NCBI GenBank assembly: GCA_963761805.1
Contig: CAVXIV010000014.1
Location: 33,217-97,216, forward strand
Source of the DNA: an uncultured Acidobacteriota bacterium
Lineage (GTDB): Bacteria > Acidobacteriota > Thermoanaerobaculia > Multivoradales > UBA5704
DNA: 64,000 nt
Direction: 5' to 3'
How positions within the stretch are numbered: position 1 is the stretch's first letter; each line of letters begins with the position of its first letter. Made by a program: the position numbers and the translations under genes. Positions 45,443 to 54,147 of the stretch are shown piece by piece. The notes under the pieces were generated by a model. It was not told the origin of the DNA. It ran no database searches and was given only the letters and a program-made list of their open reading frames with translations.

Positions 45443-48400
45443 ATGCTGAACGCGATCATCCGCTTCTCCCTCCGCCACCGTGGCATGGTGCTGCTCGCGG
45501 CCGGGCTGCTGCTGGTCCTCGGCTCGTTCTACGTCCGCCAACCTGCCGCTCGACGTCTTCCCCGACGTCAGCGCGCCCACGGTCACCGTGGTCACCGAAG
45601 CGCGCGGCATGGCGCCGGAAGAGGTGGAGCTGCTGGTGACCTTCCCCGTGGAGTCCGTTCTCAACGGCGCGCCCGGCGTGCGGCGGGTGCGCTCGGTCTC
45701 GGCCGCCGGCATCTCGGTCGTCTGGGTGGAGTTCGGCTGGGGCGAGGACGTCTACCGCGCCCGCCAGGTCGTCTCCGAGCGCCTGCAGGGAGCCCAGCTC
45801 CCGGCGAGCGTCGATCCGCCGCAGCTCGGACCCGATCAGCTCGGTCATGGGCGAGATCACCTTCATCGCCCTGACCTCGCGCACCGTCTCCCCCATGGAG
45901 CTGCGGCGGCTCTCCGAGACGGTCGTGCGCCGCACCCTGCTCTCCGTGCCCGGCATCTCCCAGGTGGTGCCGATCGGCGGCGACGTGCGGGAGTATCAGG
46001 TCGAGGCCGACCCCATCGCCCTCGCGCAGCGCGGCATCACCATCGACGAGCTCGTCGCGGCTCTGGAGAGCGCGAGCCGCAGCTCGGCCGCCGGCTTCCA
46101 CGTCGACCGCGGCCAGGAGTACCTGGTGCGGGGGCTCGGCCGCGCCCAGAGCGCCGCGGATCTCGCCTCCACCGTCCTGCGCATCGAGGACGGCGTGCCG
46201 CCAAGCGTGCCAATCACCGTGGGCGATGTGGCCGAGGTGCGCGAAGGCGCCGAGCCCAAGCGCGGCACCGCCTCCTACAAGACCCGGCCGGCGGTCATCC
46301 TCTCCGTCCAGAAGCAGCCGGACGCCAACACCCTGGCGCTCACCCGCGAGATCGACCGCCTGCTCGCCGGCCTCTCCAAGTCACTCCCCCAAGGGGTGAA
46401 GATCGAGACGGAGAACTTCCGCCAGGCCGACTTCATCCAGGTGGCGATCCGCAACGTGGCGGTGGCGCTGCGCGACGGCGCGGTGCTGGTGGTCATCGTC
46501 CTCTTCCTCTTCCTCGGCAACCTGCGCACGACGCTGATCTCGGCGCTCGCCATCCCGCTGTCGCTGGTGGCCGGCGTGCTGGTGATCTCGCTCTTCGGCG
46601 ACACCCTCAACACCATGACCCTCGGCGGCCTGACGATCGCCATCGGCGCCCTGGTGGACGACGCCATCATCGACGTCGAGAACGTCTTCCGCCGCCTGCG
46701 CCAGGAGCGGGCCAGGCCCGAGGAGGAGCGCCGCTCCGCCTTCGACGTGGTGTTCCGCGCCTCCTCCGAGGTGCGGGGGGCGATCCTCTTCGCGACCCTG
46801 ATCATCGTCCTGGTCTTCCTGCCGCTCTTCGTGCTGCCCGGCATGGAGGGCCGCCTGCTCCGCCCGCTCGGTTTCGCCTACGTCGCGGCGCTCGTGGCCT
46901 CGCTCCTGGTCTCGCTCACCGTGACGCCGGTCCTCTGCTCGCTCCTGCTCCCGCGCTCGGCGGCGCTGGACCGGCCCGAGCCCTGGCTGCTGCGGACCCT
47001 GCACCGCGCCTACCGGCCGCACCCTGGACTGGTCGCTGCGCCATCCGGCGTTGGTGATGGCGGCGACCGTGGCGGCGACGGCGGCGGCGGTGGCCGTCGT
47101 CTTCTTCCTCGGCCGCACCTTCCTGCCGCCCTTCAACGAAGGGTCGCTCACCATTTCGGTCGTCAGCCCGCCGGGGATCACCCTGGACGAGGGCGACGCC
47201 GTGGGGCGGCAGGTCGAGCAGGCCCTGCTCGACTTTCCCGAAGTGGTCTCGACGAGCCGCCGCACCGGCCGGGCCGAGAGGGACGAGCACGTCCAGGGAG
47301 TCAACGCCTCCGAGATGGAGGTCGTGCTGCGCGCGGGGCGGCCCAAGGAGGAGCTGCTCGCCGAGATGCGCAAGGCCGTGGCGACCATCCCCGGCGCCCA
47401 GGTGGCCTTCGGGCAGCCGATCAGCCACCGCATCGACCACATGATCTCGGGCAGCAAGACCAACCTGGCGGTCAAGATCTTCGGCCCCGACCTCGCGGTG
47501 CTGCGGGGGCTGTCGGCGCGGGCGCAATCGCTGCTCGCGTCCGTGCCGGGCGTCGTGGACGTCTCCAACCAGGAGCAGGCGAGCGTGCCGCAGCTCGTCA
47601 TCGACTTCGACCGCCGCGCCCTGCCCCTGCACGGCCTCACCCCCGCCGGCCTCTCGCGCTCGGTCGAGGCGCTGTTCCAGGGCACCGAGGCCGGCGAGAT
47701 CGTCGAGGGGGGCGTCGTCTCCCGGGTCGTCGTCCGCCTGCCGGAGCGGCTGCGCGCCTCGCGCGAGGAGCTGGAGGCCCTGCCGGTGCCGACGCCGTCC
47801 GGCCGCACGGTCCGGCTCGGCGACGTGGCCCGGCCGCGGTTCGACCTCGGCCCGGGGCTGGTGCGGCGGGAGAACGTGGAGCGGGTGGCGATGATCACCG
47901 CCAACGTCACCGGCGGCGACCTGACGGGAACGGTCGAACAGGTGCAGGACGGCCATGGAGTCCGGGCTCGACTTGCCGGCCGGCTACCGGATCGTCTACG
48001 GCGGCCAGTTCGAGGAGGCGGCGCGCAGCCTGCGCAATCTGGCGGCTCTCTCAGGCCTGGTGCTGATCGGCATGTACGGGCTGCTCTTCTTCGCCTTCCG
48101 CAGCCACCGGCACGCCCTGATCGTGCTGGTCAACCTGCCCCTGGCGCTGGTCGGCGGGGTGTTCGCGGTGGCCCTGGGGGGCGGCGTGCTCTCGGTCGCC
48201 TCGCTGGTCGGCTTCATCACGCTCTTCGGCATCGCCACCCGCAACGGCGTCCTGCTGGTCTCCCACTACCAGCACCTGATGCGCGAGGAGGGACAGCCGC
48301 TCGCCGAAGCGGTCGTCCAAGGCTCGCGCGAGCGGCTGGCGCCGGTGCTGATGACGGCCTTGACCGCCGGGCTGGCGCTGATCCCGCTGGTCCTCGCGGG

Positions 48401-48587
48401 CGGCGAGCCGGGCAACGAGATCCAGAGCCCGATGGCTCAGGTCATCCTCGGCGGGCTGCTCTCCTCGACCTTCCTCAACCTCGTGCTGGTGCCGGTGCTG
48501 TTCGCGCGGTGGGGCGGGCCTACCCCCGCCACCGCTCCTGCCACCGGTGAACCAGCTCGTAGAAAGTCGGCAGCGCCAGCAGCGTGA
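45443..48587 (+). pseudogene. CzcA/CusA-family HME-RND pump gene interrupted by at least four +1 frame changes
   Basis: The N-terminus [31 protein letters not shown] is canonical. Reading then switches through ORFs 45443..45874, 45480..47057, 45847..48066, 47051..48550 and 47955..48587. All carry RND motifs ([43 protein letters not shown], a second TM bundle). Shift points are near 45535, 45840, 47035 and 47945. Confidence 0.7.
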
Positions 48588-52929: not shown

Positions 52930-54147
52930 GGCAGGGCTCCGGCGGCGGCCTCCAGCTCGAAGCGCGTCAGCGAGGCGTCGAGGAGGCGGTCCAGGTAGGC
53001 GAGGCGGGTTTCCAGGATCTCGCGGCGGATCAGGAGCAGCTCCCCCAGATCGATCTCGCCGGCTTCGAAGCTCTTCAGGGCGAGGGATTCGTTGTCTTCC
53101 AGGGCGGGAAGAGCGGTCTCCTCCAGCTCCCGCACCGCGGACAAGCCGTTGCGTCAGGGCCGCGTGGCGGCCCCGGACCTCGGCGTCGGCGGCGACGCGG
53201 GCGGCGGCGAGGGCCTGGCGCAGGGCGCCGGCCCGGGCCTGGCCCACGGCGGCCGTCTCCCGGCCCGCGGTCGTGGAGAGGCAGGGAGACGACCACGCCC
53301 GCCGTCACGATGTCCGCCCCCTCCTCGCGGGCCACGCCGCCGCGCACCCCCAGGCCGGGCCGGGCGAGGGCCTGGCCCAGCAGCACCTCGGCCTCGGCTT
53401 CCCGCAGCTCGGCCGCCAGGGCGAGGAGGTCCGGCCGCCTATCCAGTCCCGCCAGGAGGGTTTCCAGCTCCACGGGGGGCCGGGGAGCGAGGCTGCCCGC
53501 GGACCTCGACGGACTCGCCAGGGGGCAGCCCGAGCAGCGCCTTCAGCTCGCCGAGCGCCGCGCTCCCTTCGGCCTCCGCCGCCTCCCTGCTCGGCCCGGG
53601 CGCCGGCGGCGGCGATGCGGGCGCGGTTCAGCTCCAGGGCCGTGGCCTCGCCCGCTTCGTAGCGCCGCTCGGTGGCGGCCAGCAGCGCGTCGGCGGCCTC
53701 GCGGCTCCTGGAGACCAGCACAGCCCTCGTCTGGGCCGCCAGGACGCGGCCGAACGCGGTCCAGACGTCCCGCAGGAGCCGCCGCCGGACCTCGGCCAGC
53801 TCGGCCTCCGCGCGGTCGAGGGCGGCCTGGGCTCCCGCCAGCCGGGCGTCCCGGCGGCGGCCGCCGTACAGGCTCTGGGTCAAGGCCGCGTCGAAGTCGA
53901 AATAGTCGTCCTCGGCGTGCCGGTAGCCGCCGTTCACCTCCAGCTCGGGATTCTCCTGGAACCGGCGGCCGGCCTGGGTCTGCCGGGCCCGGGCTTCCTC
54001 GACGCGCCCCCGCGCCAGGGCGACGTCCGCCGCCCGCTCGCGGGCGAGGGCCAGCGCCTCGTCGATCGTGAGGACCCTCTCCTGGGCCAGACAGGGAAGG
54101 GCACAAAGAAGCCCTGCGGCCCAGGGCCATATCCAGCGAAGTCTCAT
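52926..54147 (-). pseudogene. TolC-family outer-membrane efflux protein gene split over at least three frames
   Basis: The N-terminal piece 53305..54147 (MRLRWIWPWAAGLLCALPCLAQERVLTIDEALALARE...) loses sense after about residue 180. The middle piece is in ORF 53075..53473 (ELETLLAGLDRRPDLLALAAELREAEAEVLLGQALARPGLGV...). The C-terminal piece is 52926..53144 (...LIRREILETRLAYLDRLLDASLTRFELEAAAG). Confidence 0.65.

Follow-up and report, generated by a model that had tools for sequence, protein, structure and literature searches.

Within a stretch of 64,000 nucleotides (hereafter the window) from a Thermoanaerobaculia-like Acidobacteriota lineage, two convergent heavy-metal efflux operons contain genes whose reading frames are repeatedly interrupted, which raises the question of whether the organism is losing a metal-resistance island, expresses it in spite of the interruptions, or never carried them at all. 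Most likely, the DNA of the organism itself lacks these disruptions. The favored reading, to which a probability of roughly 0.6 is assigned, is that they are consensus artefacts that arose when near-identical haplotypes were collapsed, whether these came from co-assembled strains or from island copies.

The island and its two efflux operons

The copper/zinc-type resistance island spans 42.6–60.3 kb of the window (Table 1). In both operons, the OEP gene and the HlyD_D23/TIGR01730 gene are located directly upstream of the pump gene. The frame-corrected RND1 and RND2 score 771.5 and 807.1 bits, respectively, against the TIGR00914 profile, both above the curated family cut-off of 701.45 bits. Homologs bear the JGI name "CzcA family heavy metal efflux pump", and the nearest solved structures of RND2 are ZneA (4k0e) and then CusA (3k07). 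By eye, TM4 reads AVGLLVDAAIILTEN in RND2 and DFGIIVDGAIVVMEN in ZneA. The two pumps share an amino acid identity of about 40% (34–42% in tblastn), indicating old paralogs.

As in the CusCBA/CzcCBA HME-RND systems, the genes form OMP-MFP-RND operons with OEP, a HlyD/CusB-type adaptor, and ACR_tran, and as in copper/zinc resistance clusters, they are accompanied by a multicopper oxidase, a CDF transporter, a cytochrome c, and an HMBD protein. In contrast to the known systems, the operons are convergent and the 3′ ends of the pump genes overlap by 68 nt; otherwise, nothing functionally unusual was found. Judged from their sequences, the underlying genes are ordinary, functional-looking CusA/CzcA-family heavy-metal efflux operons. 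The imperfect hairpin between MFP2 and RND2 was considered as a repeated mobile element and rejected, as no second copy occurs in the window or the loci compared.

Table 1. Coordinates of the island features, given as positions in the window.
Feature	Position	Strand	Evidence or remark
OMP1, outer-membrane factor of operon 1, intact	42632..43840	+	Pfam OEP, 4.9e-27
MFP1, periplasmic adaptor of operon 1, intact	43837..45423	+	Pfam HlyD_3, HlyD_D23; NCBIfam TIGR01730, 124.6 bits
RND1, CusA/CzcA-family pump with four single-base insertions	45443..48587	+	tblastn, TIGR00914
RND1 extra base 1	45534..45535	+	raw TAC G[TC]C GCC; orthologs GCC or GTC
RND1 extra base 2	45831..45835	+	raw GGA CC[CG] ATC; orthologs CCC or CCG
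In-frame 12-nt insertion in RND1 (CCAAGCGTGCCA), near-copy of the preceding GGCGTGCCG	46201..46212	+	absent from L081, L082, and L016
RND1 extra base 3	47019..47020	+	raw CGG CC[GC] ACC; orthologs CCC or CCG
RND1 extra base 4	47946..47947	+	raw GTG C[AG]G ACG; orthologs CGG or CAG
RND2, CusA/CzcA-family pump, intact	48520..51594	-	single 1024-aa ORF; Pfam ACR_tran, 3.4e-254
114-nt imperfect hairpin between MFP2 stop and RND2 start	51607..51721	.	absent in L001; different extra sequence there in L081
MFP2, adaptor of operon 2, frame-shifted	51718..52929	-	comparison with L001; TIGR01730
OMP2, outer-membrane factor of operon 2, frame-shifted	52926..54147	-	comparison with L001
Cation diffusion facilitator (CDF) gene, same metal island	54609..55286	-	Pfam Cation_efflux, 1.4e-14
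c-type cytochrome gene	55977..56585	-	Pfam Cytochrome_CBB3, Cytochrom_C
Multicopper oxidase gene, interrupted by a single extra base near 57165	56586..57822	-	Pfam Cu-oxidase_2
OEP3, third outer-membrane efflux gene, split by an extra base at 59129	57963..59430	-	Pfam OEP
Heavy-metal-binding-domain protein, upstream edge of the island	59388..60311	-	Pfam HMBD, 1.6e-14

Extra bases in five genes

RND1 falls into five frame segments, as revealed by GC3 phase tracking and by tblastn with the intact RND1 ortholog at locus L016. The shifts between them, near 45534, 45833, 47020, and 47946, are all +1, and both methods reproduced, at matching positions, the four same-sign frame changes described in an earlier note on this DNA. 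Removal of the four bases restores an open 1046-aa ORF; RND1 is 94% identical to the intact P0001 and P0002. The same note had taken OMP1, MFP1, and RND2 to be intact, which holds: RND2 is one unbroken ORF sharing 96% amino acid identity with its counterpart at L001, and OMP1 and MFP1 differ from L082 by indels in multiples of three only.

MFP2 carries five events, at 51977 (+1), 52088–52089 (+2), and 52578, 52611, and 52623 (+1 each). The +2 and +1 shifts of the first cluster lie within 112 nt and enclose an in-frame stop (52006–52008), while the three +1 shifts of the second cluster compensate one another within 45 nt (52623/52611/52578) and create no stop. A compensating pair about 110 bp apart had been recognized in the earlier note and is real in the given sequence, but the count of two shifts in this gene was too low. 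Without the six extra bases, MFP2 is an open 401-aa ORF with 94.5% identity to L001 and a TIGR01730 score of 189.4 bits. OMP2, previously credited with at least two shifts, has four +1 insertions (53583, 53499, 53267, and 53144), the removal of which yields an open 405-aa ORF with 90% identity to L001.

Two more disrupted genes had been overlooked. In the multicopper oxidase gene, a +1 shift splits the Cu-oxidase_2 profile over two frames; tblastn places the frame change at 57164/57166, where a one-base gap appears against six orthologs. OEP3 shows its +1 relative to L007 and L010, with all remaining indels being multiples of three, and its junction reads NNRGLLAA followed by LESLGVAR.

The region upstream of the island had been described as clean, and a GC3 frame-tracking HMM combined with a boundary check, a procedure that relies on GC3 phase and would miss short compensated shifts, agreed in finding only normal gene boundaries in 0–42 kb. 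A fine-scale GC3 scan of the same region for short compensated shifts was insensitive and noisy, as it overlooked the known 45-nt event at 52578–52623. One flagged stretch in an MFS gene (41385–41552) proved to be a spurious 5′ ORF extension rather than a frameshift. An rRNA operon was considered for the low-GC3 stretch at 34.6–40.3 kb and discarded, as Rfam matched one tRNA only and the genes there are ordinary.

All 16 frame-shifting events are insertions, 15 of one base and one of two, without any frame-breaking deletion (P about 1.5e-5 if insertion and deletion rates were equal). Long homopolymers and repeats are the usual places of natural slippage; none of the insertions lengthens one, and the flanks are otherwise conserved with L081 and L001.

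Conservation of the corrected genes

Real and very recent pseudogenization in this strain, in which +1 insertions struck five genes of three metal-handling systems under relaxed selection, would leave an island in the course of being lost and possibly part-functional through the mixing of components. Accessory metal-resistance islands are frequently dispensable, the frame changes are unambiguous in the given sequence, and they are restricted to one such island, where several adjacent genes have interrupted frames, as is seen among bacterial pseudogenes in decaying islands. The condition of the genes argues against this reading, which is considered improbable. The corrected RND1, MFP2, and OMP2 ORFs have correct stops and operon overlaps, and the frame-corrected genes contain no nonsense codons. 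At ortholog-invariant columns, unique residues number 0 of 178 in OMP2, 0 of 216 in MFP2, and 0 of 536 in RND2, and none was found in the corrected RND1 among 33 homologs, while intact orthologs show 0–23 in the same test. The dN/dS of the corrected genes (0.15–0.26) falls within or close to that of intact comparisons (0.10–0.16) and gives no sign of relaxed selection; for the corrected RND1 against L081 it is 0.148, compared with 0.158 in the intact-versus-intact control and 0.10–0.13 for the intact RND2.

The pattern of the lesions is equally difficult to reconcile with pseudogenization. Bacterial mutation is generally deletion-biased, whereas 16 of 16 events here are insertions and none lies in a slippage-prone run. 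Unlike pseudogenes in decaying islands, these genes exhibit no deletion bias, no nonsense or missense lesions, no relaxed dN/dS, and no lesion common to relatives. Up to five hits in a 1.2-kb gene without substitution decay would require an extraordinary indel-to-substitution ratio, and the compensating +1+1+1 and +2+1 combinations would be selectively senseless once a stop is present.

All relatives examined (L081, L001, L016, L082, and L163–L166) are intact, and none has any of the shifts, so that the shared stops by which ancient pseudogenes might have been recognized are absent from them. L081 shares 92.4% nucleotide identity and the same convergent layout with the 68-nt overlap, while L016 has both operons in tandem; both pumps are conserved and intact in the two loci. 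A scan of metagenome contigs with the corrected RND1 gave relatives of at most 74% identity among the matches listed. The suggestion in the earlier note of a decaying duplicated island thus finds no favor, given that the pumps are old paralogs, are intact in relatives, and show no decay once corrected, and the same evidence leaves the proposed cross-operon complementation unsupported.

Programmed recoding, by +1 ribosomal frameshifting or transcriptional slippage, would allow the genes to be expressed despite the shifts and would fit the common sign (+1) of all shifts in RND1 and OMP2. However, the contexts are neither slippery nor homopolymeric and vary among sites, up to five sites occur per gene, the shifted stretch of MFP2 contains an in-frame stop, and no ortholog conserves any shift, by which this explanation is effectively refuted already.

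A two-allele reading of the extra bases

Each of the 12 single-base sites in RND1, MFP2, and OMP2 can be read as one polymorphic site, with the extra base and the base beside it as the two alleles. Nine of these sites are synonymous third positions, and the other three give the amino acid alternatives A/V, Q/R, and E/Q, which are present in orthologs; at several sites, the two bases are the exact alleles of the closest orthologs. The OEP3 event also suits this reading (Ala, GC[GC]), and the 2-nt insertion at 52088–9 and the GG doublet at 57165 fit it less neatly. Random insertions passed through the same pipeline satisfy the two-allele test in 55–62% of cases, and the 12 of 12 is accordingly of moderate significance (P = 0.002). 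A stricter nucleotide-level allele test, passed by 10 of the 12 sites against a random expectation of 24–47%, is weakly discriminating.

A technical error without any haplotype mixture is a further possibility: a noisy long-read or low-coverage consensus may retain random insertion errors in patches that polishing did not reach (e.g., very GC-rich stretches or those with ambiguous short-read mapping). In its favor are the insertion-only spectrum that avoids long homopolymers, bursts such as the three events within 45 nt in MFP2, and the otherwise healthy genes; moreover, no part of the window is richer in GC than the affected stretch (72–76%), and more than half of random insertions imitate the two-allele pattern. 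This possibility is considered rather unlikely. It is opposed by the low probability of a two-allele pattern at every testable site under random insertion, by the closest orthologs carrying exactly both bases at several sites, and by RND2, which is comparably GC-rich (72%) yet error-free.

Real insertions would mean that one strain underwent a burst of at least 16 non-slippage +1 insertions, restricted to a 14-kb copper/zinc resistance island, which struck five genes and spared RND2. An unusual mutational process that yields insertions only, unknown so far and acting locally, would then be implied. Such a process may, for example, accompany recombination between island alleles that have diverged, with both left in tandem. 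The evidence stands against it, and it is regarded as very unlikely.

The insertion-only spectrum, the absence of long-homopolymer extension, and the apparent alleles lying side by side support a hotspot of consensus error. In the collapsed-haplotype reading, reads of two very similar haplotypes would be merged into one consensus, and a single-base substitution between them would be handled as a deletion plus an insertion, so that both alleles would be kept side by side and the kept allele would add one base and shift the frame. Errors would then arise only where the merged haplotypes differ, which would explain the patchiness, with a variable accessory island affected and both RND2 and 0–42 kb clean. 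RND2, 3 kb without an event between affected genes, nevertheless counts against collapse, and the merged haplotypes would have to be identical there, or its sparing be due to chance. We infer a consensus mechanism whose source would be a strain-collapsing, probably long-read, assembly.

It is reported that nearby allelic variants led to wrong read alignments and to INDEL errors and apparent frameshifts when a PacBio assembly of T. brucei was collapsed (PMC8445201), and that Flye merges strains of about 98.65% ANI into consensus contigs (PMC8302730). As in such collapsed long-read assemblies, gene-fragmenting single-base indels occur here at or beside allelic variant sites and vanish once the extra bases are removed, leaving genes that are otherwise conserved. 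In contrast to the T. brucei case, the haplotype mixture here is deduced from the assembled sequence alone.

The main value of the locus is a lesson in quality control. Clusters of same-sign frameshifts in conserved genes of metagenome contigs should be suspected of being consensus errors at strain-variable sites before biology such as pseudogenization, the loss of metal resistance, or cross-complementation is proposed. An automatic annotation pipeline would report five pseudogenes at this locus and so underrate the metal-efflux capacity of this organism. A synonymous site at which two alleles stand next to each other offers a simple check, requiring no more than the sequence, that could flag and repair such errors.

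As the organism is a haploid bacterium, the term haplotype would here refer to strains or to copies of a repeat and not to homologous chromosomes. The earlier note had offered assembly or consensus error through paralog collapse as one alternative, of which the error hotspot is upheld and the cause is not, since RND1 and RND2, at an amino acid identity of about 40%, are too divergent to have been collapsed onto each other. Given this divergence between the operons, the collapsed sequences must be far closer, as would be the case for strains that occur together or for island copies that are nearly identical. Operon 2 occurs in two copies per genome bin in relatives, L001 and L002 in one MAG and L003 and L007 in another, which makes islands that exist in several copies or vary among strains plausible for this lineage.

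Frame changes in the metal-handling island

The window has a GC content of ~68%, rising to 72–76% across 42–54 kb, and its nearest loci are soil MAGs of the Thermoanaerobaculia, which points to a Thermoanaerobaculia-like member of the Acidobacteriota as the source. The metal-handling island comprises two convergent operons, each encoding an outer-membrane factor (OMP), a periplasmic adaptor (MFP) and a CusA/CzcA-family pump (RND), and beyond operon 2, all on the minus strand, genes for a CDF transporter, a c-type cytochrome, a multicopper oxidase, a third outer-membrane efflux protein (OEP3) and a protein with a heavy-metal-binding domain. 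The genes upstream of 42 kb (fn3 protein, M50 peptidase, flavin oxidoreductase, MFS transporter) are not related to the island. Judged by sequence, both operons are ordinary new HME-RND family members. RND1 after deletion of its extra bases (hereafter corrected) and RND2 score 771.5 and 807.1 bits against TIGR00914 (CusA/CzcA; curated cut-off 701.45), the nearest solved structures are ZneA and then CusA, and the adaptors and outer-membrane factors of both operons carry the expected domains.

The reported frame changes are confirmed in the sequence and are more extensive than the earlier note had them. The four same-sign changes it described in RND1 were recovered by GC3 phase tracking, in which the coding phase steps 0>1>2>0>1, and by tblastn with the intact ortholog of the relative locus L016 as query, which returned five pieces in frames 2, 3, 1, 2 and 3 with sharp junctions at ~45534, 45833, 47020 and 47946. 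OMP1, MFP1 and RND2 are intact as claimed, RND2 being a single 1024-aa ORF and the other two differing from the relative locus L082 only by multiple-of-3 indels. The lesions of operon 2 were placed by alignment to L001, the closest locus (90–94% nucleotide identity), where the operon is intact. OMP2, thought to contain at least two shifts, is indeed broken, and the actual number is four single-base insertions (53583, 53499, 53267, 53144). The compensating pair ~110 bp apart proposed for MFP2 corresponds to +2 at 52088–9 and +1 at 51977, with the frame restored after 112 nt and a stop at 52006 enclosed; a triple of +1 events at 52623, 52611 and 52578, which brings the frame back within 45 nt and encloses no stop, had been missed. 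Two genes beyond the earlier finding are also split by one extra base each, namely the multicopper oxidase gene at ~57165, where the Cu-oxidase_2 domain is spread over two frames, and OEP3 at 59129 (junction peptide NNRGLLAA/LESLGVAR). The upstream region looked clean as described: all same-strand frame changes in 0–42 kb were normal stop/start gene boundaries under a GC3 HMM, which is blind to short compensated shifts.

Genes of the island and insertion sites that fit a two-allele reading (window positions)
Feature	Position	Strand	Window	Orthologs
Metal-handling island	42.6–60.3 kb	both	OMP1-MFP1-RND1 (+) convergent with RND2-MFP2-OMP2 (-)	
OMP1	42632–43840	+		
MFP1	43837–45423	+		
RND1	45443–48587	+		
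RND2	48520–51594	-		
MFP2	51718–52929	-		
OMP2	52926–54147	-		
Multicopper oxidase	56586–57822	-		
OEP3	57963–59430	-		
Site	45534		Ala/Val G[TC]C	GCC or GTC
Site	45834		Pro CC[CG]	CCC or CCG
Site	47019		Pro CC[GC]	CCC or CCG
Site	47946		Arg/Gln C[AG]G	CGG or CAG
Site	51977		Val GT[CG]	GTG, GTC
Site	52578		Glu/Gln [GC]AG	GAG or CAG
Site	52611		Gly GG[CA]	GGA, GGC
Site	53144		Leu CT[TG]	CTG, CTT
Site	53267 and 53499		Arg CG[CG]	CGG or CGC

Relatives and the state of the corrected genes

Compared with each of the references (L001, L081, L082, L016, L007/L010 and Myxococcota orthologs), the window has extra bases at all 16 frame-shifting events; 15 add one base, one adds two, and there are no deletions. 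Long homopolymers or repeats are not extended by any event, and the surrounding sequence is otherwise conserved between the window and the closest relative, L081, a 7-kb JGI metagenome contig of 92.4% DNA identity. This contig has the same convergent arrangement with both pumps intact, and keeps the 68-nt overlap of the RND1 and RND2 3' ends (window 48520–48587; L081 3228–3295). Everything is intact in the two tandem operons of L016, as are the RND1 orthologs of L082 and L163–L166, and the best database proteins for RND1 are intact 1042-aa CzcA-family pumps (94% identity). None of the shifts is common to any relative compared (L081, L016, L001, L082, L163–L166), so they are not ancient pseudogenes, of which the earlier note had taken shared stops in orthologous loci as the mark.

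Deleting the extra bases yields uninterrupted ORFs for RND1 (1046 aa), MFP2 (401 aa) and OMP2 (405 aa), with stop codons and operon overlaps as expected. Corrected RND1 has no residue deviating from columns invariant across 33 homologs (at least 82% identity), and corrected OMP2 and MFP2 likewise agree with all of their 178 and 216 invariant columns, respectively; intact orthologs under the same test, as a control, show 0–23 deviating residues. Corrected RND1 compared with L081 gives a dN/dS of 0.148 (intact-versus-intact control 0.158), with 0.10–0.13 for intact RND2 and 0.16–0.26 for MFP2 and OMP2. At the sequence level, the corrected proteins are without sign of decay and the extra bases are the sole damage. 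The decaying island considered earlier, with its possible cross-operon complementation, is not supported, in view of these invariant columns and dN/dS values and of relatives free of the shifts. Real recent pseudogenisation is likewise disfavoured by the insertion-only spectrum away from slippage-prone runs, by several hits per gene yet no substitution decay, by compensating triplets that have no point once a stop exists, and by the lack of support from any relative. Programmed frameshifting was excluded, the contexts being neither slippery nor conserved.

Two-allele pattern and probable haplotype collapse

Codon alignments at individual sites revealed a recurring pattern, in which the extra base and its neighbour represent two different bases at one ortholog site, both found as ortholog alleles. 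For each event, the deletion giving the best match to the closest ortholog was picked, and the deleted base was put into an adjacent site and scored as synonymous or as giving a residue observed in orthologs. All 12 single-base events in RND1, MFP2 and OMP2 were accounted for, compared with 55–62% of simulated random insertions in the same pipeline (P(12/12) = 0.002). Insertion errors left over at random in unpolished patches, likewise an artefact, are a possible source, and more than half of such insertions would mimic the allele pattern. The OEP3 event also fits (Ala GC[GC]); the 2-nt event at 52088–9 and the GG doublet at 57165 fit poorly.

The two-allele pattern is the signature expected if reads of two near-identical haplotypes were merged into one consensus, where a substitution between haplotypes would be written as a deletion plus an insertion, keeping both alleles. 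Errors would then be limited to positions at which the merged haplotypes differ; this would explain the patchiness and is plausible in a rearrangement-prone, multi-copy accessory island. The locus looks rearrangement-prone because its layout differs between relatives: convergent (L081), tandem (L016, 1–11700) or operon 1 alone (L082, L164, L165). Operon 2 of L001 (6752–13111) abuts a homolog of window 41720–42063, and there are related MAGs with two copies of operon 2. It is reported that nearby allelic variants in a collapsed PacBio assembly caused misaligned reads and INDEL errors, which showed up as apparent frameshifts and were gone once phased (PMC8445201); the lesions here, read from the sequence alone, would be of exactly this error class. 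Long-read metagenome assemblers collapse strains at about 98.65% ANI (PMC8302730). The collapse of RND1 onto RND2, the paralog collapse suggested in the earlier note, was excluded by their ~40% identity.

We put the probability that the frame changes are an assembly-consensus artefact of any kind at roughly 0.8, and haplotype collapse is, with less confidence, the probable specific mechanism. Since the shifts are best explained as an artefact, the complementary disruptions of the two operons would not be a real biological feature.

Other features of the window

RND1 also contains an in-frame 12-nt insertion at 46201–46212 (CCAAGCGTGCCA), a near-repeat of the preceding GGCGTGCCG and not present in L081, L082 or L016, which may reflect either true duplication or the tandem placement of two haplotype versions. 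A 114-nt imperfect hairpin (51607–51721; 36-nt arms, 72% complementary) separates the MFP2 stop from the RND2 start, with no further copies in the window or the fetched loci; L001 lacks it, and L081 has other extra sequence in its place. The N-terminal part of MFP2 includes a stretch rich in His and Glu (HAEEAGHAEEAGEHADHDE) and its last residues are EHHH, and the gene upstream of OEP3 (59388–60311, minus strand) encodes a protein with a Pfam HMBD domain close to the C-terminal end; by sequence, these look like metal-binding features. The sole RNA gene detected in the window is a tRNA-Leu (anticodon TAA; 1965–2048, minus strand). In the long MFS ORF (40179–41828, minus strand), the N-terminal ~150 residues are Arg/Gly/Pro-rich with poor GC3 phase, and this 5' part is probably a spurious extension, with the true start likely near 41290.
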